DNA of 64,000 nt from an uncultured Gemmatimonadales bacterium (GCA_963737895.1 CAVTUF010000001.1:1289150-1353149); one strand, 5' to 3'; shown: positions 1,060 through 37,952, counted from the stretch's first letter. Numbers and translations are program-made. Notes: generated from the sequence alone by a model not told the origin.

Positions 1060-1731
1060 TTACAGCACCGGCAGCAAGTCGATGACCGCGTGCGCGAGCA
1101 TGTTCGAGCGGAGACCCTTTCGCAGCCATGCGAACAGCCCGAAGATGCACCCCCACACGGCGATGAGCGCCACTTTCTTCGGCCCCTGATACGCGTGGAC
1201 CATGCCGAAGATGACGCCTTGCCCCAGGATGCCAATGGTGACGCTCCCGGTCCAGGCGGACAGTTGCTGCTGGAGATATCCGCGAAACACGGTCTCTTCG
1301 CAGATACCGGCGCTGGTCGCGAGCACGATCCAGAGAGCGACCTCCACCCCGTTCGCCGGAAGCATCCCCTCCGTCGATGCAAATCCGGTGGACCCCAGTA
1401 CCCGCACGACTACCGGGGCAACCAACAGCAGCACCCCGGCGAGCATCGCCGCCATCGGAATATCCCAGAGAAGCGCCCGAGGACTCTTCCACGCGCGCGC
1501 GACGTAACCGGTGAACGCCGAATCGCTACGCCACAGAGAGACCCCGAACACCGCCCATTCGAATGCGATCGCCATCGTGTACAGCGGAATGTGCCCGATC
1601 CGCGGCGCCCCCGACACGGGTCGCGCATACACGAAAAACCCCCCGAACGCTGCGACGAGCGCCATCAGGCAGCAGGTGTGCCACACCGGCGCGATCGGAG
1701 CCGGCGAGACACCGGAGCGGTTCGTGGTCAT
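1060..1731 (-). CDS. CPBP-family intramembrane metalloprotease
   Basis: ATG at 1731 gives a multi-TM protein with CPBP motifs EETVFRGY, FGMVHA and HAVID. The upstream part of the 333-aa ORF is Arg/Gly-rich and looks non-coding. Confidence 0.8.
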   Translation of the reverse strand: MTTNRSGVSPAPIAPVWHTCCLMALVAAFGGFFVYARPVSGAPRIGHIPLYTMAIAFEWAVFGVSLWRSDSAFTGYVARAWKSPRALLWDIPMAAMLAGVLLLVAPVVVRVLGSTGFASTEGMLPANGVEVALWIVLATSAGICEETVFRGYLQQQLSAWTGSVTIGILGQGVIFGMVHAYQGPKKVALIAVWGCIFGLFAWLRKGLRSNMLAHAVIDLLPVL

Positions 1732-7278: not shown

Positions 7279-8095
7279 TTATGGGGCTTGATGACCGCCG
7301 TTCGGGGGTTTCTGAGCGCGACACCGCGGATCGCCGGCCTTCGAGGAGCGTGCGGTCCGCGGCTCCAACGCCGGGCCAGGCGTCAGGTCGCAGAACACAA
7401 ATCCGTCGCGCTCCACCACCGAACCAACGATGATGGGCACGGGCCGGATGAATACGGGACCGTTGAACACGAATGTGTGGAACTCGCCGTTCTCGCCGCA
7501 GGGATCGGCGCCGCCGGGCAGATCCTGCAGGAGCTTGGAATCGAACAGGCGCCCCGCGAACGACGGGCCGATCTTCGCGGGGTCCACGCACACGAGCACG
7601 GCCTCGAATCCGCGATCGATGAACTCACGCGCCAGCGCCCGGGTGTCGCGCAACCACAATGGAAAGAGCGCGCGCATGCCGAGTGCGGCGAGCTGCCGCT
7701 CGCGGTACGCACGCACGTCGGACAGAAACAGGTCGCCAAATGCGATGCGCGTCGCACCCGCCGCGCGGACCGGTGCGACTGCCGCGGCGAACGCAGCCTC
7801 GTAGCTGTCGTTGGAGGCGTGAACGGGGATGCGCGCCTCGAATGAGCGGCAGCCCGACCGCAGCCGCCTGAGCCTGGAGCAGCGCTCGCCGAACCCCGTG
7901 CATGCTGATCCGCTCGTAACCTGCCGTCACGGTGGTGATCAGCCCACACACGCGAACGTCTGCCGCAGCACGCAACGCGCCGAGCGCCAACGCGCTGTCC
8001 TTGCCCCCGCTCCAGGCGAGGAGCACCGGCTCTCTGGAGTCCCCGGGTGTCGCCGAAACGAGATCGGCGGCTGATTCTTCAGGAACTGCTTTCAT
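7279..8095 (-). pseudogene. Dph6-related / MJ0570-type ATP pyrophosphatase (adenine nucleotide alpha-hydrolase), interrupted by a 1-nt frameshift near 7840
   Basis: The N-terminal ORF has the PP-loop LLAWSGGKDS and runs to ...AAAVGLPLI. The sequence continues sensibly only in the frame of ORF 7279..7716: EARIPVHASNDSYEAAF...DVRAYRERQLAALGM...GENGEFHTFV. After 7840 the first frame turns Arg-rich. Confidence 0.75.
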
Positions 8096-8268
8096 GCTGT
8101 GAACATACGTCCAACGCGCATCGATGATCTCGGAAAAAGAGGTGCGGGAATGATTCATCGCCACACACGTCCGAGCTACCGGGGCCGGGCGAACCCAAGC
8201 TACCTGAGCGAGGGCGCCCGGCACTACTTTGCGGCTCACACCCCCACCGGCCGCACGAGACTCGGCGT

Positions 8269-9306
8269 TTGATGCAAATCGGCATCTATACTTTCGCGGA
8301 CACATCGCCCGATCCAGCCACCGGCGCGACTATCAGTAGCGCGCAGCGGCTTCGCCAGGTGCTCGAAGAGATCGAGCTCGCGGACCAAGCCGGACTCGAC
8401 GTGTTCGGCGTCGGCGAGCACCACCGCGTCGATTTCGCGGCGTCTGCCCCGGCCGTGGTTCTCGCCGCCGGCGCCGAACGCTCGAAGCGGATCCGCCTCA
8501 CGAGCGCGGTCACGGTTCTCAGCTCCGATGACCCGGTTCGGGTCTTTCAGGATTTCGCAACACTGGACCTGATTTCCGGCGGACGCGCGGAGATCATGGC
8601 CGGACGCGGATCGTTCATTGAATCGTTTCCGCTGTTCGGCTACGACCTCGACGACTACGACGAGTTGTTCGCCGAGAAGCTGGGGCTATTGCTGGAAATT
8701 CGCGACCACGTCCGCGTGACGTGGTCGGGCAAGCACCGTCCCGCCCTCGACGGCCTCGCGGTCTATCCGCGCCCGATCCAGGAGCCGCTCCCGGTGTGGA
8801 TCGCGGTCGGCGGCACCGAACATTCGGTGATGCGCGCCGCTACACTCGGGCTGCCCATGGCGCTGGCCATCATCGGCGGCGCGCCGGAACGTTTCGCGCC
8901 CCTGGTCACGCTCTATCGCGAGACGGCCCGGCGGACGGGGCACGACCCCGCACAATTGCCCGTCAGCATCAACTCGCACACGTTCGTTGCCGCCAGCTCA
9001 CAGCAGGCGGCGGACGACTTCTTCCCCTCGTACGCGGCGACCATGACGAAGATCGGCCGCGAGCGGGGCTGGCCGCCGGTCACGCGGCATCAGTACGAAG
9101 CACTGCGCTCACCTCGCGGTGCGCTGCTCGTGGGCAGCCCGCAGGAAGTGATCGACAAGATCATGTTCCAGTACCAGCTCTTCGGCCACCAGCGCTTCCT
9201 TGCCCAGCTCGGCGTCGGCGCCATCCCGCACGACAAGGTCATGCACTCGATCGAGCTGCTCGGCACCCAGGTTGCTCCAGTCGTCCGACGGGAAATCACG
9301 GGGTAA
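8269..9306 (+). CDS. LLM-class (luciferase-like) flavin-dependent oxidoreductase
   Basis: 345 aa. The pattern MQIGIYTF...FGVGEHH...[14 protein letters not shown]...VWIAVGG is typical of the luciferase-like monooxygenase class. Confidence 0.85.
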
Positions 9307-9398
9307 GTGCCGCCGCGCACCAATTCGTCGCCGGTTGGGGCGGGTCATGATCCGCCCTCTGTGGTTGCCGTTACACCACCGCCTGTAGCCCACGCCAC

Positions 9399-9438
9399 GG
9401 GGGCCGCTCGAATACGGCCCCCGCGGCAGAAGCCGCGG
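9399..9438. terminator. two GC-rich hairpins between convergent genes
   Basis: GGGGGCCG-ctcgaata-CGGCCCCC (9399-9422) is followed by CCGCGGC-agaa-GCCGCGG (9421-9438). There is no clear U-tract. Confidence 0.45.
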
Positions 9439-9455
9439 CCAGTGCGCGATGCTGC

Positions 9456-10056
9456 CTACTTGGACCAGGGCGGTTTGACGCCGTTCATCCTGGAGTAAGC
9501 GATGAGCTGCCCCAGATGCTCGTGCATGTCAGCGGCCATGCCAAGCGATGTCTCGAGGATCGTATAGTTCCCGCCGAACAGTTTCCTCGAGCCAACCAGG
9601 TTGGCGGGATCGACGCCACCCACCGCCGATTGCGCGTACGCAAACCCTTCCTTGAGGTGTTTGAGCACGTCGGCCTTGGTGGACATCTTCTCGAATGCCT
9701 GGACGGCCGGCTGCCCCTTGGCAATGACTGGCGAGCGCTCGGCGCCGAACGACATCGGCACATACAATGTAGTACTCGCTCGCGACATGCATGAACACCT
9801 CGCCGATGGAGCGCACGCCAGGCGCCGGACGCCAGGAGTACTTCTCAGCCGGTATCGCCTCCGCCAGCGCCAGGTACTTCGACTGGAGCGTGTCGAGATC
9901 GAGCAGATACTGCTTGCGGACTTCGGTCGCCGCGGCGCGGTCCGGGACGTCCTGCGCCCGCGCGATGACGGAGAATCCGGATGTTCCGGCCGCCATCACC
10001 ACCAGAACGGCACATCGCCGGGCGAGCCGTTGCATTGACAAGGATGTCTGATCCAT
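9456..10056 (-). pseudogene. DinB-family protein with signal peptide, interrupted by a 1-nt frameshift near 9762
   Basis: The N-terminal ORF (ATG 10056) reads ...GVRSIGEVFMHVASEYYIV and then turns Arg-rich. The adjacent frame continues VPMSFGAERSP...DMHEHLGQLIAYSRMNGVKPPWSK, a typical DinB C-terminus. Confidence 0.75.
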
Positions 10057-10181
10057 AGTGCTGTTCCTCAGGGTGGAATCGTGAGAGCATTGGTACGGGC
10101 TCGAGCGGGCCCCGCCCGCCAGTGGGTCGTTGGACACCCTGCCGCCGTCGACCGTTGTCGGCGAACCGGGCGTCCGCGGGA

Positions 10182-11102
10182 CTACTCGATCCTGGCTACC
10201 CCATTCCCCGGTGCCGGGAACCGGACGAATATCTGCGGGTCGTGGCCCGGGATGATGAGTCCAGGACTCAATGCGATGCGCCGCATCCGGTCCTGCGCCT
10301 GCAGGTTCGATACTGAATCGGCCGGCGAGAACGTCGCTCCGATCGGCGCGTGCTTGGCGAGATTCTCGAACATGTACATGTTGTCGGACGCCAGCACGAC
10401 GACGCCCTTCGCGGTCCGCACCCCAGCATACTGCGATGCGTAGGTGTGCCGGCCGCCCGTGTAAACCGTAATGCCGGGTATCACTTCGCGCGCGTCGCCG
10501 TCGACGAGTTGAACGCGTCCCGCGCGATGCAGTTGCGCCAGCATCTTGGCATCCACTGTGTCGATGGCTTCGCCCAGTGGAAGGCCATTGGCACCGACGT
10601 AGTGCTCGTATTCAGCCTTCTGAATCCAGATGCGTGCTTTGGGAAACAGATCCGCCCCGTCGAGGTGATCCCAATGCACGTGCGAGATGATGATGTCGGT
10701 CACGGCACCGGGGGTCACCCCGGCTTTGGCGATCGCGTCGGACGGACGCTGATAGTCGAACGGCTTCCACGCCGCGAGAAACTGCGGACGGTAGAACCCG
10801 GCATCGAGCAGCACCGTGTGCCCGTTGTTCCCCTTGAGCACCCCGATGATGAATGCCAGGTCGGTCCGGCGCGCGGTGTCGGCGCCCTTCACGAGTTCGG
10901 CGACGGGAAACCCATGGAAACCAGCAAACCGCACCATGTAGACTTCGTACGCCGGCGCCGCTTGGGCCGATAGCAGCGATCGGCCGCCGGTCAGCGCGAG
11001 CAGCCCTGCCAGAACGAGGAGATGCCGGGCGACGAGATGCCAGGCAACGGCCCGGTATACGGCGCCAAACCTGGTGAAGCGGGCAAGACTGTGACTGGAC
11101 AC
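10182..11102 (-). CDS. MBL-fold metallo-hydrolase (lactonase-like), probably secreted
   Basis: Contains the motif IISHVHWDHLDG. The start is uncertain: GTG at 11102 has GGAG 9 nt upstream and yields a signal-like LLVLAGLLALTGG. The ORF itself is open to 11249. Confidence 0.75.
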   Translation of the reverse strand: MSSHSLARFTRFGAVYRAVAWHLVARHLLVLAGLLALTGGRSLLSAQAAPAYEVYMVRFAGFHGFPVAELVKGADTARRTDLAFIIGVLKGNNGHTVLLDAGFYRPQFLAAWKPFDYQRPSDAIAKAGVTPGAVTDIIISHVHWDHLDGADLFPKARIWIQKAEYEHYVGANGLPLGEAIDTVDAKMLAQLHRAGRVQLVDGDAREVIPGITVYTGGRHTYASQYAGVRTAKGVVVLASDNMYMFENLAKHAPIGATFSPADSVSNLQAQDRMRRIALSPGLIIPGHDPQIFVRFPAPGNGVARIE

Positions 11103-11275
11103 GACAGGACGCTCCGGAGAGGGTGGACGTCCCCGGCGATCGGACGGCCGCGGGAGATTGACCGGGTAGATTCTAGGCCGATTGGCCTGGCCCCGCCACA
11201 CGCCCTTGCTGCGTGTGACGACTGCGCGTAACCTCACCCCGGCACTCACTCCGTCCAGGCCGGGCCAATCTCCCC

Positions 11276-12847
11276 ATGACGTTCCAGCGCAAGCTGCTCC
11301 TGGGGTTCTCGCTCATGGCCCTGCCCGCACTGCTCGTCGCGGGTGAGGCGATCCGCACCAATCTGCTCGAACGGGCCGCACTGAAGGCTCTTGGCGAGGA
11401 TCTCGCACGGTCGCGCACGTACGGCGAGCTCGAAACCGCCATGTTCAATCAGACGGAAACCGTCTGGCGATACCTGACCGGGATGGATCCGACTGCCCGC
11501 CAGGAATTCGATCTCAATGGCGAGGTCATCGACTACTGGTTGCAGCGTTGGAGATCCGAGTTGCGCCCCGATGAGGCTGGACTCGCCAACGACGTCCGCG
11601 AGGTGCAGCAGCAAATCCGTCTTGCCTCTGTGCACGTGTTCGCGGTCTACGACTCCGGCCGCCACGAAGATGCGTACCGCCTCGCCCAACAGGACATCCG
11701 CGACCGGCTCCTGCCCATCCTCGACAACCTGAACCGCGACATCTACCGGCGTGCACGCGAGTCCAGCGTCCGCGGCGCCTACGCCAACCTTGCGGACATC
11801 GTCGCCGCCGAGAATCGCGCCGTAGTCGCCATTCTCATCCTGGCTCTCGCGACTGCGTTCATCGCGTCGTGGCTCATCTCGCGCAGCCTCGCGCGCCCGA
11901 TCAGCCAGCTCCGCGAAGCGATGGCCGTTGTTGGCACGGGGAGGCTCGACTATCCCATCGAGGCGCGCTCGCCGGATGAGATAGGGGACCTCGCGCGCTC
12001 GTTCGCGATCATGACCGAGCACCTGCGCGAATCCCGAGCGGGCGTGGAGCGGCTCAATGCCGAGCTCGAGGCCAAGGTCGCGCAGCTCGAGCGGACGCAG
12101 GCCCAGCTCCTGCAATCGGAACGGCTCGCGTCGATCGGCGAGATGGCCGCAGCCGTCGCCCATGGTATTCGCAATCCGCTGGCGAGCCTCCGCGCCGCCG
12201 CGCAGCTCGCGCTCCGCCAGGCGCACCTCCCCGCCCCTCGGGAACACCTCGGCGTCATTATCGGCGAGGTGGACCGCCTCGACCGGCGCGTCAGCCACCT
12301 GCTCAACTTCTCGCGACCTGCGCCGGTCCACCAGATGCGCGAAAGCGTCGCCCGGTTGGTCGAGGACCTCACGCCGCCGTTCACCGAGTTGCTGAAGGAG
12401 CGCCACATCGCACTCGACGTGCAGATCGCGCCCGGGCTTCCGGATGTCCGCATCGACCCGATGCAGGTGGAGCAGGCGCTCGTGGAAGTCGTATCCAACG
12501 CGCTCGACGCCATGCCCGGCGGCGGCAAGCTGCGCATCGCCGCCTCCGCGGCTGCTCTTGGCGGCAATCCGGGTGTCGTGATCGAGATCGCCGATACCGG
12601 TGCCGGCATCCCGGAGCACGTGCTGCCATCGGTGTTCGACCCGTTCTTCACGACGCGCCCCGAAGGCACCGGCCTCGGTTTGGCAGTGGCGAAGCGTTTC
12701 ATCGAGCAGAACGGTGGCGCGGTCGCCATCGTGAGCGCGCAAGGCCAGGGCACTACTATTCGGCTGCAGTTGCCCGTCGCGGTGGACGACAATGACGCCA
12801 GCGCGGCGCGTGCAGCCGGCAGTCCTCCACCCACGAGTAATTCCTGA
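11276..12847 (+). CDS. sensor histidine kinase (TM sensor domain, HAMP, HisKA, HATPase)
   Basis: H-box SIGEMAAAVAHGIRNPL, G-boxes IADTGAGIP and GTGLGLAVAK, and HAMP-like SRSLARPISQLREAM. Confidence 0.9.
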   Translation: MTFQRKLLLGFSLMALPALLVAGEAIRTNLLERAALKALGEDLARSRTYGELETAMFNQTETVWRYLTGMDPTARQEFDLNGEVIDYWLQRWRSELRPDEAGLANDVREVQQQIRLASVHVFAVYDSGRHEDAYRLAQQDIRDRLLPILDNLNRDIYRRARESSVRGAYANLADIVAAENRAVVAILILALATAFIASWLISRSLARPISQLREAMAVVGTGRLDYPIEARSPDEIGDLARSFAIMTEHLRESRAGVERLNAELEAKVAQLERTQAQLLQSERLASIGEMAAAVAHGIRNPLASLRAAAQLALRQAHLPAPREHLGVIIGEVDRLDRRVSHLLNFSRPAPVHQMRESVARLVEDLTPPFTELLKERHIALDVQIAPGLPDVRIDPMQVEQALVEVVSNALDAMPGGGKLRIAASAAALGGNPGVVIEIADTGAGIPEHVLPSVFDPFFTTRPEGTGLGLAVAKRFIEQNGGAVAIVSAQGQGTTIRLQLPVAVDDNDASAARAAGSPPPTSNS

Positions 12848-12857
12848 GCCCGACCGC

Positions 12858-14273
12858 ATGAGCGCAGCCACCGTATTGATCGTCGATGACGAGCGCACGC
12901 TCGCGCGGTCGATCAAGGCGTTCCTCATCGAGTCCGGCTACGAGGCCGAGGTCGCGGGAAGCGGCGAACAGGCGCTCGAACAGTTGGAGCGCGTGCGGCC
13001 GGATGTGATCTTCGCCGATGTGCGCCTGCCGGGCATGAACGGCATCGAACTTCTGCGCCGGATCCGGGAGTTCGACGCCGCCGTCCCGGTCATAATGATG
13101 ACTGCGTACGGCACGATCGAAGGCGCCGTGGAAGCGGTTAAGCTCGGCGCCTTCGACTATCTGAAGAAGCCTGTCGATCTGGACGAGCTCAAGCTGCTCA
13201 CCGACCGGGCACGCGAGTCGTCGCGACTCAAGCAGGAGTTGTCCTACTACAGGCGCCGCGACACACCCGAAGTCCGCTTCGCCGAGATCGCCGGCCAGTC
13301 GCCGGCTATGCAGGCCGTGCTCGATCGCGCCAGACAGATCGCCGCGCTGGATGATGTGCCGCCAGTCCTCATCACCGGGGAAACCGGAACCGGCAAGGGT
13401 CTGCTCGCGCGCAGCATTCACGCCGCGGGACCACGCTCCGCGAAGCCATTCATCGAGGTGAACTGCACGGCGCTGCCCGGAACGCTGATGGAGGCTGAGC
13501 TGTTCGGCCACGAACGCGGCGCCTTCACCGACGCGAAGGAATCGAAGATCGGACTCTTCGAAGCCGCCGAAGGCGGCTACCTGTTTCTCGACGAGGTCGG
13601 CGACATCGAGCTGTCGCTCCAGGGGAAATTGTTGCGCGCCATCGAAGACCGGATGGTCCGGCGCGTGGGAGGCATCCGCGACCGCAAGATCGACACGCGG
13701 ATCTTCGCCGCCACGAATCGCGATCTCGAGCGCGATGCACAGCGAGGATCGTTTCGAAAGGACCTCTACTTCCGGCTCGCGGTCATCCTGCTCCGGCTAC
13801 CGCCGCTTCGCGAGCGGGGCGATGATGTGCTCCTCCTCGCCGAATTGTTCCTGCGCCAGTTCGCCGCGAAGTATGGCAAGGACGTGCACGAGCTCAGCCC
13901 CCGCGCACGCGCGCTGTTGCTGTCGTATCCGTGGCCCGGCAACGTGCGCGAGCTGAGTCACGTCATCGAACGCGCCGTGCTGTGGAGCCGCGGTGCGATG
14001 CTCGATCCCGGCCACCTGTCGCTCACCGAGCCTGCGGCCTTCGAGCCACCTGGTGCCTCCGGCGGCGACTCCTATCCCGATCATATCGGGGGGACCTCGA
14101 ACCCGGGTCCCGGAATCCCGCCAGGCGGAGGCGACCTGCCGCAGTGGGAGAAAACAGTCATCGAACAGGCGCTGCGCGAAGCAGGCGGCAATCAGACCAA
14201 GGCCGCCCAACGGCTCGGCATCAGCCGTGACACGCTCCGCTATCGGCTGAAGAAGTTCGGGATCGCAGGATAG
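12858..14273 (+). CDS. sigma-54-dependent response regulator (NtrC family)
   Basis: ATG at 12858 lies 8 nt after the kinase stop. It has a receiver domain (LIVDDE...DVRLPGMNG), an AAA+ domain (GETGTGKG, ELFGHERGAFTDA) and a C-terminal Fis-type HTH (AAQRLGISRDTLRYRLKKFG). Confidence 0.92.
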   Translation: MSAATVLIVDDERTLARSIKAFLIESGYEAEVAGSGEQALEQLERVRPDVIFADVRLPGMNGIELLRRIREFDAAVPVIMMTAYGTIEGAVEAVKLGAFDYLKKPVDLDELKLLTDRARESSRLKQELSYYRRRDTPEVRFAEIAGQSPAMQAVLDRARQIAALDDVPPVLITGETGTGKGLLARSIHAAGPRSAKPFIEVNCTALPGTLMEAELFGHERGAFTDAKESKIGLFEAAEGGYLFLDEVGDIELSLQGKLLRAIEDRMVRRVGGIRDRKIDTRIFAATNRDLERDAQRGSFRKDLYFRLAVILLRLPPLRERGDDVLLLAELFLRQFAAKYGKDVHELSPRARALLLSYPWPGNVRELSHVIERAVLWSRGAMLDPGHLSLTEPAAFEPPGASGGDSYPDHIGGTSNPGPGIPPGGGDLPQWEKTVIEQALREAGGNQTKAAQRLGISRDTLRYRLKKFGIAG

Positions 14274-14284
14274 ACCCAAGGGGG

Positions 14285-14321
14285 TGGGCTATTTCACCCA
14301 CTCCTTGGGTAAATGACCCAA
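14285..14321 (+). promoter_or_regulatory. candidate enhancer (UAS): two adjacent inverted repeats TGGG-N6/7-ACCCA
   Basis: TGGGctatttcACCCA (14285-14300) and TTGGGTaaatgACCCAA (14305-14321) lie about 100-135 nt upstream of the -24/-12 promoter. Confidence 0.45.
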
Positions 14322-14418
14322 TGAATGCGCACTTTGAATTCACGCATGGGATCGGTCATGAGCGCATAACGCATGGACTGGCCGGAGGTTACGCGCATAC
14401 AGGCGTTTGCGGTGGCGC

Positions 14419-14434
14419 TGGCACGACGGGTGCC
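14419..14434 (+). promoter_or_regulatory. sigma-54 (-24/-12) promoter
   Basis: TGGCACgacggGTGC, with GG at 14420-14421 and GC at 14432-14433 (GG-N10-GC spacing). It sits 88 nt upstream of the pqqA-like ATG and directly downstream of a sigma-54 activator gene. Confidence 0.7.
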
Positions 14435-14521
14435 TATAGGCAAGGCGCAGCCGGTTGAACGTTGTGAGTGTCCATCGGCTTTTCGACCCACCCGGGTCCG
14501 TCCTTTTCTGCGGAGCGCCTC

Positions 14522-14593
14522 ATGTGGACCAAGCCTGAATTCGAAGTCGTAGAAGTCACGATGGAAGTGACTGCCTACGTCGCCCGGCGCTAA
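14522..14593 (+). CDS. pqqA: pyrroloquinoline quinone precursor peptide PqqA-like (23 aa)
   Basis: ATG 14522 to TAA 14591-14593 encodes MWTKPEFEVVEVTMEVTAYVARR. GGAG lies 6 nt upstream. Length, the N-terminal MW.KP and the Glu15/Tyr19 pair (EVT.Y) match the PqqA family. Confidence 0.8.
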   Translation: MWTKPEFEVVEVTMEVTAYVARR

Positions 14594-14618
14594 GAGCCGG
14601 ACGGATCGGTAAGACAGA

Positions 14619-14648
14619 GGGGGCCCCGAAACGGGCCCCCTGTTCTTT
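14619..14648. terminator. rho-independent terminator (possibly bidirectional)
   Basis: GGGGGCCC-cgaaac-GGGCCCCC followed by TGTTCTTT. It lies between pqqA and the convergent gene that ends at 14678. Confidence 0.75.
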
Positions 14649-14677
14649 CCCGGCGGAGCCTGTGTAGCTCGGGCGGC

Positions 14678-16330
14678 TCACGTGTTGTTCGTGAGTACCC
14701 CCACCAGCCACGTGCGAGCTGCGGCCACCTCGCCATCGCCGATCGAATGACCGCCCAGCTCCCAATGGAGCGTCACCGATGCGCCGCAGCGCCGCAGCAG
14801 CTCGGCGAGACGTTCGGTTTCCGCTGGCGGCGCGATCGGATCGGCCCGCCCGGCTCCAATGAACACCGGCGTCCCCGCGAGATCGGGTAAGGGGTCCGGC
14901 TCGAACGGCACCATTGGACTGAGCAGAACCGCGGCCCGCAGCACGCCCGGCCGGCGCAGCAGGAGACTCGCGGCAATGTTGGCGCCGTTGGAGAATCCGG
15001 CAGCCACGATTCCGTCGCGATCCAGGCCATACGTTGCCGCCGCGGCCGCGACGAACTCGGCCAGCTCGGTCGTGCGCCGCGCGAGGTCCTCCTGATCGAA
15101 CACACCTTCCGCGATCCGGCGGAAGAATCTCGGCATCCCGCGCTCCAGCACCTGTCCGCGGGGACTCAGGAGCCCGGCACCGAGCACGAGCGCGCGGCCC
15201 AATGGGATGAGGTCCTCTTCGTTGCCGCCGGTACCGTGGAGCAGGAGCAGGGTGGTACCGCCCGCATACTCGGAGCCGGGAGCCGGCGGCACGTAACGGT
15301 GCACGAAACCGAGTGCGTCGCCACTCACATCTTCGGGCCCGCCGGTCGCATTGCTGAGGGCAATGTCGGCGCCCGGCACCGGGAGATGGATCGGCGGCAG
15401 CACGGCCTCGATCTGCGACCGGTATGACTCGTATTGGGCCGGTAGCATCAACCGCTCGCCGAGGTGCTCCATGGGCTCGTCGATCGCGAAGCCCGGCCCG
15501 TCGGTGGCGATCTCGAACAACACGCCGCCAGGTTCGTGAAAGTACACCGAATGGAAATAGGTCCGGTCGATGACTGGAGTCGGCGTGGGGCCCGCCGCGG
15601 CCACTTGCTCGCGTAGCGAGAGTTGCGCCGCGTCATCCGCTGCGCGGAACGCCACGTGATGCACGATCCCGGCGCCGCCCGCCCCGCGCGGGAATCCGCC
15701 GACGGCCCGCACGTTGACCAGCGTCCCTGCGCCGCCATCGCCGGCCGCATACCGCCGCGTTGTGTGCTCCTCACTCACCGGCCGGAACCCCAATGTGTCG
15801 ACGAGGAGGCGCTCCGTCGGGTCATGCTTCTCCTCCCAGAGCGTGACGCCGTGGAATCCCCGGATCGCCTGATCGGCGCCGATGCCCGGCGAACCGGCCC
15901 ACGCGGGACGCACCTCCGCGCTCGCGTGCGCGACGATCTCGAGCATCATGCCGTCGTGGTCCCGGAACGCGATCACCTGCTCCGCGGCCGTACCGGTCCC
16001 GCGCTTGGAGGGTCCCTCGAATGCGACGCTATGCCTCACCAGCCGGGCCACCCAGAATCCGAGCGCCGGCGGCAGCACGGCGAACGACGTCACGGCGACC
16101 TGCCCGGTGCTCTGGCGCCCCCGATGCGCGCCGGGCCACGGGAAGAAGGTCATCACGCTGCCCGGCGTCCCCGTCTCGTCGGCAAAGTAGAAATGGTAGG
16201 TTTGCGGATCGTCGAAGTTGACGGTGCGCTTGACGAAGCGCAGCCCGAGCAGCCCCACATAGAAATCCAGATTCCGCTGGGGGTCGGCGGCGATCGCCGT
16301 GACGTGATGAATGCCGAGTACGCCTGTCAT
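14678..16330 (-). CDS. fusion of a two-domain VOC/glyoxalase-type ring-cleaving dioxygenase with a phospholipase/carboxylesterase-type alpha/beta hydrolase
   Basis: ATG at 16330. The N-terminus GIHHVTAIAADPQRNLDFYVGLLGLRFVKRTVNFDD... is MhqO/YfiE-like. The C-terminus TLLLLHGTGGNEEDL...AAGFSNGANIAASLLL is MhqD-like. Confidence 0.8.
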   Translation of the reverse strand: MTGVLGIHHVTAIAADPQRNLDFYVGLLGLRFVKRTVNFDDPQTYHFYFADETGTPGSVMTFFPWPGAHRGRQSTGQVAVTSFAVLPPALGFWVARLVRHSVAFEGPSKRGTGTAAEQVIAFRDHDGMMLEIVAHASAEVRPAWAGSPGIGADQAIRGFHGVTLWEEKHDPTERLLVDTLGFRPVSEEHTTRRYAAGDGGAGTLVNVRAVGGFPRGAGGAGIVHHVAFRAADDAAQLSLREQVAAAGPTPTPVIDRTYFHSVYFHEPGGVLFEIATDGPGFAIDEPMEHLGERLMLPAQYESYRSQIEAVLPPIHLPVPGADIALSNATGGPEDVSGDALGFVHRYVPPAPGSEYAGGTTLLLLHGTGGNEEDLIPLGRALVLGAGLLSPRGQVLERGMPRFFRRIAEGVFDQEDLARRTTELAEFVAAAAATYGLDRDGIVAAGFSNGANIAASLLLRRPGVLRAAVLLSPMVPFEPDPLPDLAGTPVFIGAGRADPIAPPAETERLAELLRRCGASVTLHWELGGHSIGDGEVAAARTWLVGVLTNNT

Positions 16331-16390
16331 GGGAACGGGTTCGGAGGAGACGGCCGTTGGGCAACCGGGGATGCCACGCGACGCGCCAAA

Positions 16391-16420
16391 CGAATCGCAG
16401 AGCGAATCGCAGAGCGAAAG
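16391..16420. repeat. tandem 12-nt repeat CGAATCGCAGAG x2.5 in a divergent promoter region
   Basis: Perfect copies at 16391-16402 and 16403-16414, plus a partial copy at 16415-16420. A perfect TATAAT lies at 16488-16493 upstream of the NmrA-like gene. Confidence 0.6.
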
Positions 16421-16564
16421 ATGAAGGAGGGCCGGCCCGCGCCGCGAGGGCCCGCCCAGCCGCATACCCCTGCCCTATTATTCGCCCTATAATTCACGGT
16501 CCCACACACCAGCGCACGATCCGCGGCGGTGACGCGAGCGACGAACGCCCACTCTGGAGTAACG

Positions 16565-33763: not shown

Positions 33764-35137
33764 TCAGGCCGCCGGCGGCCGCGTGAGTCCGTGCCGCCGC
33801 ATGATCTTCAACAGGCTGGCGTGATCGGCCAGCTCCAGATCCTGCGCGGTCTTCGTGACATGCCAGTCGTGCTGGTCGAGCGCGGCAATCAGGATCTGCC
33901 GCTCGGCCTCGGCTTTCCGTTCGAGGAAACTGCGCCCCACCATCGTGCCGTTCGTTTCCCGCGACGCACCTCCCTCACGGACCTCCAGCGGGACGTGCTC
34001 CGGTCCGATCGTATCGCCATCCGACGCGATGACCATGCGCTCCACGACGTTCCGAAGCTCGCGCACGTTGTTCTGGTGCCAGTCATAGGTCATGAGCAGC
34101 GGGATCACGGAGGGCCCGAGCTGCTTGCGGCGGCACCGGAAGCGCTCGCAGGTCGACGCCAGCAGGCGGCCGACAAGATCGGGGATGTCCGAGAGGCGGT
34201 CCCGTAGCGGCGGCACGCGCAGCACGTGCGTATTGAGGCGAAAGTACAGATCCTTGCGGAACCGTCCCGCCTCCACGTCAGCGGCAAGATCCCGGTTCGT
34301 GGCGGCAACAACGCGCGCGGGTACTGGCAGCGCGCGGGAACTGCCCAACCGGACGATCGCGCGCTCTTCGAGGACTCGCAGGAGTTTGGCCTGCGCCGGA
34401 AGCGGCAGCTCTCCGATTTCGTCCAGGAAGAGGGTTCCGCGTCCCGCGCTCTCGAACGCGCCTTTGCGCTGCATGACCGCGCCGGAAAATGCCCCGCGCT
34501 CATGACCGAACAACTCACTCTCGACGAGTTGGTCCGGCAGCGCGGCACAGTTGACCGCCACGAATGGATCGCGCGGATTGGACCCCAACCGGTGCACGTC
34601 GCGGGCGACCAACTCCTTGCCGGACCCGCTCTCGCCCGCGATCAGCACCGCGCTCGGGATCGGCGCGACACGGCCGATCGCATCCTTGAGTGCACGCATC
34701 GCCGGACTGGCGCCGAGCAGTGCACTCTCATCATCGGCGTAGCGGCGCAGCATGGCGATCTCGTCCTGCATGCGCCGGCGCTCGATGGCCATCCCGATCT
34801 CGTGCGCGACTCGCTCGACTGGCTCCTCCTTGTCGATGAACGCGAGTGCGCCTCGGCGAATGGCCTCCGCACACCGGTCATAGCTCCCCGTTCCGGTGTA
34901 CACGATGACGGGGACAGGAGACCCACGATCCTGCAGTGCCTGGAGAACGCCGAAGCCGTCCATTCCTGGCATCTCGAGATCGAGCACCACGCAATCGATC
35001 GCGTCGCGGCCCAACACCTCGAGCGCGGCCGCGCCCGACCCCGCGACCTGGACGTCATGGTGGCCGAGGCGCCGGAGATCGTACGCGTATTGCTCGGCGA
35101 CTGCGATGTTGTCGTCACACACGAGTATTGTGGACAT
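33764..35137 (-). CDS. sigma-54-dependent response regulator (NtrC family)
   Basis: ATG at 35137 with GAGGA upstream. Receiver (ILVCDD...DLEMPGMDG), AAA+ (GESGSGKE, ELFGHERGAFSGA) and a C-terminal HTH. Confidence 0.92.
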   Translation of the reverse strand: MSTILVCDDNIAVAEQYAYDLRRLGHHDVQVAGSGAAALEVLGRDAIDCVVLDLEMPGMDGFGVLQALQDRGSPVPVIVYTGTGSYDRCAEAIRRGALAFIDKEEPVERVAHEIGMAIERRRMQDEIAMLRRYADDESALLGASPAMRALKDAIGRVAPIPSAVLIAGESGSGKELVARDVHRLGSNPRDPFVAVNCAALPDQLVESELFGHERGAFSGAVMQRKGAFESAGRGTLFLDEIGELPLPAQAKLLRVLEERAIVRLGSSRALPVPARVVAATNRDLAADVEAGRFRKDLYFRLNTHVLRVPPLRDRLSDIPDLVGRLLASTCERFRCRRKQLGPSVIPLLMTYDWHQNNVRELRNVVERMVIASDGDTIGPEHVPLEVREGGASRETNGTMVGRSFLERKAEAERQILIAALDQHDWHVTKTAQDLELADHASLLKIMRRHGLTRPPAA

Positions 35138-35145
35138 GCCGATCC

Positions 35146-36945
35146 TCACGATGCGCGCGTCTGGAGGGGCGCCGCGCTGATGCCAGCCACGCCGCTGCCA
35201 GCTACGCTGGGAGTGGCTGGCCCCGGGAAGGTGAGCGTGACACGCGTTCCGCTCCCCGGAGCGGTGTCCACCCGAAGGACGCCGTTGACGTCGCGCACGA
35301 GACGCCGTACGATCGAGAGCCCGAGGCCGGTGCCGTTCGGCTTCGTTGTGAAGAAGTCGCTGAACGCCGACCGCAGCTCATCAGGGTTCATCCCACACCC
35401 GTTGTCAGCAATGGTCACGCACACGTCGCCTCCGGCCGGCTCTGTCATGATGGTCACGCCGCCACTCACGTGGCGAGTCGCATCGAGTGCGTTCGACACC
35501 ACGTTCTCGAGGATGCGGCGTATGACCAGCGGATCGGCCGTCACTGGCGGAGCCTTTGGATCGAGCCGCAGCGTGATCGCCGCTGTCTCACCCGCCCCGG
35601 GGGCAGTCTCGGGCGTCGCATAGCCGGACGCGACAGCCGCCGCCACCGCGTTGATGTCGCATGGACCGATGTCGGCACGGGGACTGAGCCTGGCATAGTT
35701 GCGGGCCAGTTCGTCGAGGTACCCAATGCTCGCATCGAGCGTCGTCCGGCGCTCCGCGAAGACTGCGGCCAGTTGCTCGGGTGTTGAACGCTGGATCTCG
35801 GCGAGATGCCGCATCACGTGGCGGATCGGGACCAACCCGTTCTTGACGTCATGGGTGACCTGCCGCGCCAGATCACCCATTGCCGCACGCCGCTCCGCCT
35901 CTCGCAGTCCCGCAGCGGTCGTGCGAAGACGTTGCACCATCGTGCCCAGCACGCGCGACAGCACGCCGATCTCGTCGGTGCGATCGGTCGAGAATCCAGT
36001 GGCTAGCGGCGCGGTAGTTGGCACGAGATCGACTTGTGCGGATTGCTCCGCCAGCATCCGGATCGGCCGAGAGATTCGCTCGGCCAGCGAGTTGGCAGCC
36101 AGCAGCGCCGCCGCGGCGGCCAACAGTGCCGCGACGAGGCACCACCACAACACCGCGGCCCGCAGCAGGCGCAGCCCGCTCAGTGATTGTGTGACGTCGA
36201 ACCTGGCCAATGAGAGAGTGCGTGCGCCATTCGATGTCGCGGTGATCGCCGGAAAGGTGAACGACGAGACCAGCGATGCGCCGGGCTCGCGGGGATGCGA
36301 GACGACTGCGTTGCCGGGGAATGGGCTGGCCGCTGGCTGGGCGACTATCAGCGCCACCGACAGCTCGCTATCCGCTGCCGCGTGCCCCAGCCGCTGGGGT
36401 GTTGCTTCGGCTCCGCCGACCAGCACGAACCGCCGGCCGCCGAGCTGGAGGGAATCGGCACGTGCGAGGACCAGAATCGGACCGGCTGGGGTCCGTGCCC
36501 ACATGAGCGCCACGCCATCCGGCGCCCGCCGGAGGACCGAGACGAGTCCGGTATCGAGGCGGTCGTACTCGTTGCGATAGTGCCCCGAACTCAGAATCCG
36601 GCCGCTGTCATTCTCGATCTGCAGCATAGCGAGCCCGGAGAGACGCATCGCGCGCGCGGCATAGTCGAGGAGATACGGACGCTCCGCCGCCGTGCCGAGC
36701 ACCGCAGCCGCGCGGAATCGATTGTCGTCAGCCAGCCCGTCTCGCACGGACGCCAGACGCTCGGCGACCCCGGACGCGACGCTCTCGACGTCGCGACGAG
36801 TTTGCGCCGCGAGCCCATCGGCGCGCCGCCGGTCCGCATCTCGGAGCCGCCAGTCCAGTTCGTGCGCGATCCCCGCGGCGAGAACGGCCAGCGGTATCAC
36901 GGCGGTCGCGGCGAGTGCGACGAAGAGCCGGGTGCGAAACGTCAT
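35146..36945 (-). CDS. sensor histidine kinase
   Basis: ATG at 36945 overlaps the upstream stop (ATGA). Two TM segments flank a large periplasmic region. H-box AAMGDLARQVTHDVKNGL and G-boxes IADNGCGM and GTGLGLSIVR. Confidence 0.9.
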   Translation of the reverse strand: MTFRTRLFVALAATAVIPLAVLAAGIAHELDWRLRDADRRRADGLAAQTRRDVESVASGVAERLASVRDGLADDNRFRAAAVLGTAAERPYLLDYAARAMRLSGLAMLQIENDSGRILSSGHYRNEYDRLDTGLVSVLRRAPDGVALMWARTPAGPILVLARADSLQLGGRRFVLVGGAEATPQRLGHAAADSELSVALIVAQPAASPFPGNAVVSHPREPGASLVSSFTFPAITATSNGARTLSLARFDVTQSLSGLRLLRAAVLWWCLVAALLAAAAALLAANSLAERISRPIRMLAEQSAQVDLVPTTAPLATGFSTDRTDEIGVLSRVLGTMVQRLRTTAAGLREAERRAAMGDLARQVTHDVKNGLVPIRHVMRHLAEIQRSTPEQLAAVFAERRTTLDASIGYLDELARNYARLSPRADIGPCDINAVAAAVASGYATPETAPGAGETAAITLRLDPKAPPVTADPLVIRRILENVVSNALDATRHVSGGVTIMTEPAGGDVCVTIADNGCGMNPDELRSAFSDFFTTKPNGTGLGLSIVRRLVRDVNGVLRVDTAPGSGTRVTLTFPGPATPSVAGSGVAGISAAPLQTRAS

Positions 36946-37952
36946 GGCGCCCTCTCCTCGGCCACGACGGCCCGGGCGCCGAGTGCGGCGATCCGTGAGA
37001 CGGCATCGCGGCGCACGATGGCCCAGGCTCGCGTCTCGATCAACGGAACGATCGCCGCCTGCCGATCGCCGGACTGCATCGTAAGGCGCGGCGCGCTCGC
37101 CGGAATCGCACCTGTCTCGCCGCACGATTGTAGCGTCGGCAATGGAATGGCGACGACGTATGCTTCGCCGCTGGCCCCCATCACGGCCCGCGGAAGATCG
37201 CGGGCCGGTAGTCCCGTCGCGTACATCTCGGCACCCATTCGGCCAAGTGCCGGCGCAACGCCACCAAGCAGGCTGCTGCCGGTCGACGCGAGGACGGCCA
37301 GCCTCTCGGCCAGAAACCGCGCAACGCTGTCCTCCTGGTCGTAAAGGATGCGCGCTGCACTCGGCAATCGCGCGGAAGCCGGGCCGGGGGTCACCACCAC
37401 GCTCGGGTGAGCAGCATCTCCGCCACAAGCGCTGTCCGGCAGCGCAATCCCGGCACCGAACGCCCGAGCGTCGGCGTGGACCACGTCCGAAGCGAGTGCC
37501 GCCCCCAAGGGATTTGCGGCTGAGTCTGGCCGTCCGGGCTGGCGACGCACGACCAGCACGTAGACGCGGTCCCACGGGAGCGGAACCGATACCAGACCGG
37601 GGTGGCCGGCCGCATAGGCTACCACCGATCGGTCCCGCGTCACCAGGATGTCTACGCCCTGGTCGAGCGCATCCCGCGCCCCGCGATCGCTAACCCGCCG
37701 CAGGACGACTGTATCCTGCCCAGCCGACGGAGGGGTACGGCCAGGCCGAGCCGGCGGCCTGGGATTCAGGCATTCCGGCGGAGCCACGGCGGCTCCGATC
37801 TGGCTCAGCAGACGCGGAACGGCGGACGCCGGGTCGCGGACGCCCAAGGAGTCAGGCGCCCCGGCGATCGTGACGGCGATCGGCCGGCTGGGCCGTTTGC
37901 CGGAGCACACAGCACCGCGAGGGGAGCCGGATCCGGCGATGGGCCGGCACAT
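36942..37952 (-). CDS. periplasmic solute-binding-protein-like protein (first gene of the kinase/regulator operon)
   Basis: Weak resemblance to ABC substrate-binding proteins (...ARDALDQGVDILVTRDRSVVAYAAG...VPLPWDRVYVLVV). The start is uncertain: ATG at 37952 or TTG at 37988. Confidence 0.5.
   Translation of the reverse strand: MCRPIAGSGSPRGAVCSGKRPSRPIAVTIAGAPDSLGVRDPASAVPRLLSQIGAAVAPPECLNPRPPARPGRTPPSAGQDTVVLRRVSDRGARDALDQGVDILVTRDRSVVAYAAGHPGLVSVPLPWDRVYVLVVRRQPGRPDSAANPLGAALASDVVHADARAFGAGIALPDSACGGDAAHPSVVVTPGPASARLPSAARILYDQEDSVARFLAERLAVLASTGSSLLGGVAPALGRMGAEMYATGLPARDLPRAVMGASGEAYVVAIPLPTLQSCGETGAIPASAPRLTMQSGDRQAAIVPLIETRAWAIVRRDAVSRIAALGARAVVAEERAP

Follow-up and report, generated by a model that had tools for sequence, protein, structure and literature searches.

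A second pqqA gene in an uncultured Gemmatimonadales bacterium is very probably equipped with its own sigma-54 two-component switch

The analysed DNA, below called the window, is a stretch of 64,000 nt from an uncultured soil bacterium of the Gemmatimonadales (GCA_963737895.1 CAVTUF010000001.1:1289150-1353149), whose genome assembly (G000) is 81.6 % complete. It encodes a sensor histidine kinase and an NtrC-type response regulator, followed by a spacer and a stand-alone second gene for the PQQ precursor peptide, pqqA2 (Table 1). A preceding sequence-only reading had described kinase and NtrC-type activator genes ending at 14273, with which both our coordinates and domain assignments agree. The kinase is laid out as a first transmembrane (TM) helix (residues ~7-27), a periplasmic sensor (~28-180) and a second TM helix (~181-203), followed by HAMP (56.6 bits), HisKA (45.8 bits) and HATPase_c (85.3 bits) domains as detected with Pfam, and its H-box reads AVAHGIRNPL. 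The sensor measures ~150 aa, which corrects the ~170 aa given by the earlier reading.

Table 1. Features of the kinase-regulator-pqqA2 locus, numbered from the first nucleotide of the window.
Feature	Position	Strand	Description
Sensor histidine kinase	11276-12847	+	523 aa; HAMP, HisKA, HATPase_c
NtrC-type response regulator / sigma-54 activator	12858-14273	+	471 aa; receiver, AAA+, Fis-type HTH
Upstream activator site 1 (putative)	14285-14300	.	TGGGCTATTTCACCCA, TGGG-CTATTTC-ACCCA; variant of the lineage 16-bp palindrome TGGGTGA-NN-TCACCCA
Upstream activator site 2 (putative)	14306-14320	.	TGGGTAAATGACCCA, TGGG-TAAATG-ACCCA; 15-bp dyad
Weak IHF/HU-like bend site	14382-14391	+	CCGGAGGTTA; 37 nt upstream of the promoter element; poor match
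Sigma-54 promoter (predicted)	14419-14433	+	TGGCACGACGGGTGC, TGGCACG-ACGG-GTGC; GG 14420-14421, GC 14432-14433
Small leader hairpin	14485-14498	+	GACCCACCCGGGTC, then CGTCCTTTTC; terminator-like, 5 pairs
Shine-Dalgarno GGAG	14512-14515	+	6 nt before ATG
pqqA2, stand-alone second PQQ precursor peptide gene	14522-14593	+	23 aa, MWTKPEFEVVEVTMEVTAYVARR
Intrinsic terminator	14618-14651	+	9-pair G+C-rich stem and GTTCTTTCCC tail

For the regulator, Pfam returned Response_reg (113.5 bits), Sigma54_activat (209.4 bits), AAA_lid_14 (82.1 bits) and HTH_8 (61.3 bits), and the start conserved among orthologues is the ATG at 12858 (MSAATVLIVDDE), not the upstream ATG at 12792. The receiver shows the DDE...FADVRLPG pattern with the phospho-acceptor aspartate, while the Walker motifs read GETGTGKG (A) and LFLDEVGD (B). 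Judged by these domains the protein would be a bacterial enhancer-binding protein (bEBP), for which ATP-dependent activation of sigma-54 is presumed. An rpoN gene is encoded at G000:C1:69159-70586 (TIGR02395, 437.1 bits against a cut-off of 277.35). The sigma-54 contact loop is GAFTDA instead of the canonical GAFTGA, a form that is invariant in the seven orthologues checked as well as in all GTDB loci containing the loop. The same natural variant is found in DVU2106, a working activator of sigma-54 promoters (PMC4641369), and in VfmH of Dickeya, for which the authors could not show sigma-54 interaction and stated the effect of the G-to-D change as unknown (PMC10714721).

The spacer behind the regulator gene contains the predicted sigma-54 promoter with exactly the GG-N10-GC spacing that had been noted at 14419-14433, although its -12 element is GTGC and not TTGC. 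Transcription is predicted to start near 14444-14446, leaving a leader of about 77 nt. Taken alone within the window, the motif is weak evidence and not beyond chance, as the single match compares with 0.17 expected and 16 of 100 shuffled sequences contain one or more, so that we relied on comparative evidence and any significance comes from conservation in relatives only. Of 66 loci from other Gemmatimonadales species (GTDB species genomes), 64 carry a [CT]GGCAY-N5-NYGC element 58-128 nt ahead of pqqA, compared to 3.05 expected from dinucleotide shuffles, whereby such locus counts overstate the independent support because the compared genomes are kin. A profile anchored on the promoter shows the element and the palindrome blocks to be conserved and the remaining spacer to be unconserved.

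The two inverted repeats TGGG-N6/7-ACCCA reported by the earlier reading at 14285-14321 are likewise present, as the putative activator sites 1 and 2. From the start of site 1 to the T of TGGCAC the distance is 134 nt, and site 2, with a spacing one base shorter, is less conserved. Their centres lie about 20.5 bp or two helical turns apart, and the congeners L046 and L112, like many other loci, also have two dyads, 18-21 bp from each other. The palindrome TGGGTGA-NN-TCACCCA is located 104-138 nt upstream of the -24 element in 49 of 64 loci, with 0.13 expected. We rejected the dyads as a terminator of the regulator gene, because a stem of 7 bp closed by a 2-nt loop and lacking a T-run would not terminate transcription, and because relatives carry the same sequence at other places too. 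Upstream of the promoter, CAANNNNTTR matches are concentrated at -37/-38 and -52/-53 relative to the start of the promoter element, as seen for 23 of 64 loci. Congeners carry CAACGAGTTA at -37, and the genome has one HU/IHF-family gene, so that the poorly matching site of the window may be a weak IHF/HU-like bend site.

One might object that the -24/-12 match is unused and that pqqA2 is transcribed by read-through from the kinase-regulator genes or from an unrecognised sigma-70 or ECF promoter, the dyads serving for example in autoregulation or as an operon boundary. Besides the chance-level pattern in a single window and the departure from TTGC, the non-canonical GAFTDA loop and the lack of a strong terminator between regulator gene and pqqA in the window would fit this view. 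However, the GG-N10-GC element stands at a similar distance from pqqA in nearly all of the loci and persists even with pqqBCD placed between regulator and pqqA or, in the case of L041, with a hairpin behind the regulator gene. Moreover, no sigma-70-like match was found between 14200 and 14720, and a perfect dyad of 16 bp in which just 2 nt form the centre makes no useful terminator hairpin, which renders an idle promoter highly improbable.

The pqqA2 gene scores 30.8 bits against TIGR02107 (cut-off 20) and carries the E-X3-Y cross-link motif as EVTAY. Its peptide is identical in four congeners and differs by one residue from that of pqqA1 (G000:C1:1045718), the first gene of a pqqABCDE operon situated 258 kb away, in which pqqE and pqqC reach 539 bits (cut-off 381) and 291 bits (cut-off 240), respectively (G000:C1:1.046-1.049 Mb). 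The stretch GGAGCGCC..ATG in front of pqqA2 is conserved across five congeners, while the leader hairpin sequence is conserved in the congeners L038-L040 and not in L041. The terminator hairpin after pqqA is conserved in all loci inspected and, with the gene beyond it being convergent, the pqqA2 transcript should be monocistronic. A reading of this transcript as a structured RNA was discarded, since its fold z-score is -1.57 and nothing but the terminator stands out. We also rejected that the two-component system controls pqqA1, since the region upstream of pqqA1 holds no palindrome and only a poor GG-N10-GC match, a sigma-70-like promoter being conserved there instead.

Conservation of the kinase-regulator-pqqA order in related genomes, named by the sequence-only reading as a check on its proposal, holds strongly, with seven of seven loci from a genome search and the 66 GTDB-species loci in agreement; pqqA follows the pair in every orthologous locus with enough downstream sequence. 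Across the seven loci, kinase identity is 84-96 % within the genus and 56-64 % in a second family. In a phylum sample of 401 genomes we detected the sensor in 77, as a single copy per genome, and pqqC in 88. Every one of the 77 sensor-positive genomes contains pqqC, and the sensor is absent from all 313 genomes that lack pqqC. The pair-bearing congeners G000, G006, G007 and G009 have two pqqA copies each, and G003 (96 % complete) and G004 (93 % complete) are devoid of the pair and have one. Among the congeners checked, the pair and the second pqqA were gained or lost together.

This pattern also bears on the question of which protein occupies the dyads, as they are assigned to the adjacent regulator by adjacency and co-occurrence only, and at least four further sigma-54 activators are encoded in the genome. 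With a genuine sigma-54 promoter, the palindromes could be the target of another dimeric regulator, either alone or jointly with the adjacent one, in which case pqqA2 would not answer to the neighbouring system only. Against this stand the restriction of the single-copy sensor to pqqC-positive genomes and the joint loss of the pair and pqqA2 in two congeners. The dyads furthermore begin 12 nt past the regulator stop codon in the window and shortly past it in the seven orthologous loci whose spacers were inspected, and both the HTH end of the regulator (NQTKAAQRLGISRDTLRYRLKKFGI) and the half-site are nearly invariant among the orthologues, so that we regard a foreign or shared occupant as quite improbable.

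We then scanned the genome with a palindrome matrix built from 103 orthologous sites, which had been pre-selected for TGGG...CCCA. Site 1 is the top match genome-wide (18.7 bits), and it is the only one among the nine highest-scoring matches that is intergenic and has a sigma-54 element at the right distance, although further targets could be missed because the genome is only 81.6 % complete. The incompleteness and the pre-selection of the matrix sites leave some room for a broader regulon, comprising for instance PQQ-dependent dehydrogenases, transport or the divergent metallo-beta-lactamase-fold hydrolase ORF (10182-11249), which lies just 26 nt from the kinase start; pqqA2 would then be one member among others and the system not dedicated to it. 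Yet the other eight top matches lack this combination, the hydrolase neighbour is not kept beyond the genus, and only 7 of the 66 loci show sigma-54-like motifs 5' of the kinase, a raw count not set against shuffled sequence. We thus consider such a regulon improbable. Sigma-54 autoregulation of the kinase operon is not supported by that same count.

In our assessment the kinase-regulator pair (11276-14273) is very likely a dedicated switch for the adjoining pqqA copy. The sequence-only reading had suggested such a wiring of pqqA to a sigma-54 two-component system of its own, and this proposal gains support from the synteny, the conserved cis-elements, the co-occurrence of sensor and pqqC and the presence of rpoN. 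A periplasmic signal would be read by the four-helix-bundle domain of the kinase, which would phosphorylate the NtrC-type regulator. Regulator dimers at the two dyads (14285-14320) would assemble into an AAA+ ring, which DNA bending may carry to the closed sigma-54 holoenzyme at TGGCACG-N4-GTGC (14419-14433), where the promoter would be opened through ATP hydrolysis. The product would be a monocistronic pqqA mRNA of about 200 nt, ending at the terminator at 14618-14651. One PqqA peptide is consumed per PQQ molecule, and as the processing enzymes come from pqqA1BCDE at a distance of 258 kb, the module would raise the precursor, and hence PQQ, on demand. Binding of the regulator to the dyads, the transcription start, RpoN dependence, the direction of regulation and the signal are what we infer from the arrangement.

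NtrB/NtrC with glnAp2 of enteric bacteria is the paradigm of a two-component sigma-54 enhancer promoter, and the present locus shares with it a kinase and a REC-AAA+-Fis-type HTH activator, tandem dyads some 110-140 bp ahead of a GG-N10-GC promoter and, presumably, the requirement for rpoN. The proteins are not orthologous, however, reaching 400.1 bits for NCBIfam ntrC (cut-off 558.6) and 114.9 bits for NR(II) (cut-off 240). NtrB is cytoplasmic and PII-controlled, whereas the kinase described here is membrane-bound with a periplasmic four-helix bundle, and its target is a 23-codon cofactor precursor gene instead of nitrogen assimilation. AtoS/AtoC of E. coli and ZraS/ZraR resemble our pair in combining a membrane sensor kinase with a sigma-54 response regulator beside a single target operon, but their sensor domains are unrelated in sequence and both binding site and target differ. 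The best named NCBIfam families are AtoC (446.5 bits, cut-off 714) and AtoS (236.8 bits, cut-off 646), with ZraR at 365 (cut-off 760) and ZraS at 187 (cut-off 479); the kinase does not reach the cut-off for any named NCBIfam kinase. We therefore refrain from naming the pair AtoSC, ZraSR or NtrBC, as every score is under the curated equivalog cut-off. The closest solved structures are those of Aquifex aeolicus NtrC1/NtrC4 (4l4u, 1ny5, 3dzd), which match receiver and AAA+ over their full length with E-values from 3e-104 (4l4u, the best) to 1e-84, but they come from another phylum, have a GAFTGA loop and serve targets unrelated to PQQ.

Periplasmic alcohol, sugar and lanthanide-dependent dehydrogenases use PQQ as their cofactor, and these enzymes matter for soil carbon turnover and phosphate solubilisation. 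Control of PQQ synthesis is known mainly from a few Proteobacteria; in Methylorubrum the mxb/mxc systems control pqq genes, and M. extorquens has the copies pqqA2/A3. In Pseudomonas, pqq control involves the LuxR-type AgmR and the ErcS/ErdR/PedS2-PedR2 network, and sigma-54 enters only through CbrB (PMC12997753), while a transcript study of P. aeruginosa found the control of PQQ biosynthesis by CbrAB/Crc to be mostly indirect (PMC3480352). Common to these systems and ours is that sensory systems set the PQQ supply via transcription of pqqA or the pqq operon, but the Pseudomonas and Methylorubrum regulators work through promoters of the sigma-70 type. This review and transcript literature on Pseudomonas describes no bEBP site at pqqA, and our full-text literature searches, like the sequence-only reading, revealed no described sigma-54/bEBP control of pqqA. 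Beijerinckiaceae RH AL1 has three pqqA copies, and changes in pqqA expression are lanthanide-dependent (PMC10848612). The additional copies of methylotrophs are, like pqqA2, near-identical precursor genes away from pqqBCDE and are differentially expressed, but unlike here, no dedicated regulator or promoter class is assigned to them in the literature found.

The sigma-54 mechanism itself is textbook knowledge, so the value of the locus lies in its target, pqqA, and in the signal rather than in a new principle. The second pqqA very probably has its own on-switch, consisting of membrane sensor, sigma-54 activator and matching promoter. Position, conserved cis-elements and phyletic pattern tie a single-copy sensor system to a precursor gene in a soil phylum that is abundant and almost uncultured, and this offers a testable promoter-regulator pair and a natural example of inducible precursor supply (sigma-54) being split from the enzyme operon (sigma-70-like). 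It also provides a candidate signal receptor, the ligand of which would reveal the environmental cue calling for PQQ.

The N-terminal 208 aa of the kinase gave no Pfam match even at an E-value of 0.1, 4HB_MCP included. An AlphaFold2 model of residues 25-185 (pLDDT 86.3) has four helices (2-44, 50-71, 74-102 and 106-160), and the periplasmic domain is predicted to be an antiparallel four-helix bundle between the two TM helices. Best Foldseek matches of the model are 4HB ligand-binding domains (TM-score 0.6-0.75, probability about 1.0), namely those of MCP2201 (citrate/malate), PcaY_PP (aromatic acids), Tar (aspartate), NarQ (nitrate) and the Adeh_2942 kinase sensor, whereby at 8-17 % identity and with every Foldseek E-value above 0.001 the ligand is not inferable from them. 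It is conceivable, if unlikely, that the arginine-rich domain senses periplasmic PQQ, a tricarboxylate, or the demand for it (apo-quinoprotein, lanthanide or calcium), so that the module would act as a cofactor homeostat metering PQQ via PqqA, its sole consumable component. On this reading, the system would govern the whole pqq operon, with a third operator at a fixed position of +53, in about 40 % of the genomes sampled from a sister family, and no earlier sensor devoted to the supply of PQQ would be known.

According to the sequence-only reading, the pqqA-like gene of the window appears to be wired to a dedicated sigma-54 two-component system, with an enhancer plus a −24/−12 promoter. Reading of 14100–15000 together with the ORF listing confirmed the coordinates of the kinase-activator pair, the dyads, the GG-N10-GC element and pqqA, which are compiled in the table. 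ATG 12792 was rejected as start of the activator gene in favor of the ATG at 12858, which is conserved among the orthologues and lies 10 nt past the kinase stop. A promoter scan of the window returned no sigma-70-like promoter in 14200–14720. In the pqqA2 leader (14485–14509) we observed a five-pair hairpin GACCCACCCGGGTC followed by CGTCCTTTTC that was flagged as terminator-like; the hairpin is kept in three of four congeners and could act as an attenuator or a stabilizer.

Table: Features of the pqqA2 locus, the second sigma-54 module and the pqqA1 upstream region (window coordinates unless stated otherwise)
Feature	Position	Strand	Details
Histidine kinase, 523 aa	11276–12847	+	HAMP, HisKA and HATPase_c domains
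Sigma-54 activator	12858 (ATG, MSAATVLIVDDE) to 14273	+	Response_reg 113.5 bits, Sigma54_activat 209.4, AAA_lid_14, HTH_8 61.3
Dyad 1 (putative activator site)	14285–14300		TGGGCTATTTCACCCA
Dyad 2 (putative activator site)	14306–14320		TGGGTAAATGACCCA
Predicted sigma-54 promoter element	14419–14433	+	TGGCACGACGGGTGC, spacing GG-N10-GC
Ribosome-binding site GGAG	14512–14515	+	
pqqA2, 23 codons	14522–14593	+	Peptide MWTKPEFEVVEVTMEVTAYVARR; TIGR02107 (PqqA) 30.8 bits, cut-off 20
9-pair G+C-rich hairpin	14618–14641	+	T-rich tail
Second module, activator	33764–35149	−	REC-AAA+-HTH_8, loop GAFSGA
Second module, kinase, 809 aa	35146–37575	−	HAMP/HATPase
pqqA1 upstream region	L002 (pqqA1 region of the window's genome, G000) 1200–1620		= G000:C1:~1045400–1045840

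A kinase search in 40 relatives yielded full-length orthologues in four congeners (84–96 % identity) and three further ones from a second family of the order (56–64 % identity), and 9–10 kb around each of these seven loci were compared. The kinase-regulator-pqqA synteny is kept in 7/7, with TGGGT...ACCCA dyads just past the regulator stop and an element of the type TGGCACG-N4-NTGC 89–121 nt before the pqqA ATG in every locus. When an alignment of the sensor half was scanned over one genome per GTDB species, 185 relatives were obtained, the best 80 of which all belong to the Gemmatimonadota; the 66 of these 80 loci that hold both the regulator 3′ end and a pqqA were used for comparison. In class 1 loci the peptide ends in ...YVATL and pqqB comes next, so that the pair stands before the whole pqq operon; class 2 loci, among them the window, end in ...YVARR and have no pqqB thereafter. 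Seven loci (L050, L051, L053, L060, L061, L065 and L066) carry approximately 2.3–2.6 kb between regulator and pqqA, and here the sigma-54 element still directly precedes pqqA. L053, the only gapped locus annotated, displays the unusual order kinase, regulator, pqqB, pqqC, pqqD, sigma-54 element and pqqA (7961–10348), showing that its pqqA follows three of its own processing genes while retaining its own promoter.

The promoter motif TGGCACG-N4-KTGC has one match in the window versus 0.17 expected, a number reached by 16 of 100 shuffles; by itself and within the window only it is not beyond chance, and the case for it therefore rests on the relatives. There, 64 of the 66 loci contain [CT]GGCAY-N5-NYGC within the stretch from −200 to −40 relative to the pqqA ATG, compared to 3.05 in dinucleotide shuffles of the same stretches, and 49/64 loci have the strict palindrome TGGG-N8-CCCA 104–138 nt ahead of the −24 element versus 0.13 expected. 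The palindrome follows the consensus TGGGTGA-WW-TCACCCA, and many loci contain a second copy 18–21 bp from the first. In a promoter-anchored profile of all loci, the element and the palindrome blocks stand out from an unconserved spacer. Matches to CAANNNNTTR cluster at −37/−38 and −52/−53 from the promoter start, and it is at this position that an IHF/HU-type bend site would be expected. The genome encodes one HU/IHF-family protein, and the candidate bend site in the window is degenerate (CCGGAGGTTA, 14382–14391).

Class 1 loci additionally feature a third TGGGTGA-NN-TCACCCA starting 52–54 nt past the T of TGGCAC, which places it at approximately +28 to +43 in the predicted RNA; roughly 188 bp lie between its center and the upstream site. 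Of 42 class 1 loci, 38 carry this copy (L056, L070, L075, L096, L108 and 33 further), versus 0/22 class 2 loci. It may act as an operator or enhancer at a downstream position, or form a hairpin in the leader. The block GGGCGTCGTCGGG at the predicted transcript start, noted with the class 1 loci, is likewise conserved.

To assess how far the system is dedicated to pqqA, a palindrome matrix built from 103 orthologous sites was scanned over the whole genome of the window. The genome-wide top score of 18.7 bits belongs to site 1 of the window, and none of the next eight matches (12.4–15.9 bits) combines an intergenic position with a sigma-54 element at activator distance. Only 7 of 66 loci show sigma-54-like motifs ahead of the kinase gene, counted without a shuffle control, and kinase autoregulation is thus not indicated. 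Across 401 evenly sampled genomes of the phylum, 77 encode the sensor domain, each in a single copy, with 8/93 in the family of the window, 68/166 in the second family and 0/141 in ten other families. The same sample contains pqqC in 88 genomes; it accompanies the sensor in 77/77 sensor-positive genomes, while 0/313 pqqC-negative genomes carry the sensor, and although these counts overstate the statistics because kin are not independent, the co-occurrence pattern is clean all the same. Within the genus, G000, G006, G007 and G009 combine the pair with two pqqA copies. The near-complete congeners G003 and G004 (96 % and 93 %) have pqqC and the operon pqqA only, and the module is therefore accessory within the genus, as both lack the sensor kinase and the second pqqA.

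The genome of the window (4.2 Mb in four contigs, estimated completeness 81.6 %) encodes rpoN (TIGR02395, 437 bits versus a cut-off of 277) and two pqqA genes. The copy at C1:1045718, pqqA1, is followed by pqqB, pqqC (291 bits), pqqD and pqqE (539 bits). The window copy, pqqA2, stands by itself as a second precursor gene, 258 kb away from this enzyme operon. Both peptides are one residue apart (T3Q), and the genes differ by many synonymous substitutions, so the duplication is not recent. Upstream of pqqA1, six congeners share a sigma-70-like TTGCGT-17 nt-GATACT together with a leader hairpin, CGCCGGTCGCTCCGGCG, that is conserved among them; in the same six, this region holds no palindrome and only poor GG-N10-GC matches. 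Judged from this consensus similarity, different sigma factors appear to transcribe pqqA1 and pqqA2. A further hairpin lies between pqqA1 and pqqB, and a divergent ECF-type sigma factor gene (Sigma70_r2 + r4_2) is located 260 nt upstream of pqqA1.

The regulator contains Walker A GETGTGKG, Walker B LFLDEVGD and the HTH NQTKAAQRLGISRDTLRYRLKKFGI, and its closest solved structures are Aquifex NtrC-family proteins (4l4u, E 3e-104). The pair would work like AtoSC or NtrBC, yet it lies outside those families, as neither protein reaches the cut-off of any named NCBIfam equivalog (AtoC 446.5/714, NtrC 400/559, ZraR 365/760, AtoS 237/646). The sigma-54 contact loop of the regulator reads GAFTDA rather than GAFTGA and is invariant across the orthologues checked. 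For DVU2106, a Desulfovibrio activator that has sigma-54 targets, GAFTDA figures in a list of substitutions regarded as compatible with activation (PMC4641369); for VfmH of Dickeya, the effect of the same loop is given as unknown (PMC10714721).

No Pfam match was obtained for the periplasmic part of the kinase (residues ~28–180). An AlphaFold2 model based on 47 orthologues depicts the sensor as a four-helix bundle (pLDDT 86.3), and the top Foldseek ranks are 4HB ligand-binding domains, namely MCP2201, the Adeh_2942 kinase sensor, PcaY_PP, Tar and NarQ, with TM-scores of 0.6–0.75 and E-values all above 0.001. The ligands of these domains are anions, among them carboxylates, amino acids and nitrate. 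In the orthologue alignment of the sensor, several arginine, tryptophan and tyrosine positions do not vary.

We propose that a periplasmic signal would be read by this four-helix bundle, upon which the kinase would phosphorylate the regulator. The latter would then assemble on the tandem dyads, and looping, perhaps aided by an HU/IHF-type protein, would bring it to the sigma-54 holoenzyme at the predicted promoter, likely giving a short monocistronic pqqA mRNA with a putatively RpoN-dependent start. Since each PQQ molecule uses up one PqqA peptide, a larger supply of precursor would increase PQQ output, with the processing enzymes supplied by the distant pqq operon.

Synteny, cis-element conservation and phyletic pattern thus support the wiring of pqqA to a sigma-54 two-component system. 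Mechanistically it would be an ordinary enhancer switch of textbook class. In the full-text literature searched, which leaves subscription journals outside its coverage, we found neither a sigma-54 promoter nor a bacterial enhancer-binding protein described at pqqA, nor any description of this sensor domain; the target is new to this literature. A 2026 review of Pseudomonas ped/pqq names AgmR as likely pqq regulator and gives sigma-54 only for CbrB (PMC12997753), and a P. aeruginosa transcript study calls CbrAB/Crc regulation of PQQ biosynthesis "mostly indirect" (PMC3480352). The signal read by the sensor is a testable question.

Several neighboring features were observed as well. A convergent 595-aa ORF (14678–16465, minus strand), combining a glyoxalase/dioxygenase-fold domain with an MhqD-like carboxylesterase (NF047577, 154 bits, below cut-off), adjoins pqqA2 in all five congeners. 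Just 26 nt separate the kinase start at 11276 from the start of a metallo-beta-lactamase-fold gene on the opposite strand (10182–11249, minus strand); this gene has weak lactonase-family matches and is found beside the kinase only within the genus. The window furthermore encodes a second sigma-54 module at 33764–37575 on the minus strand.
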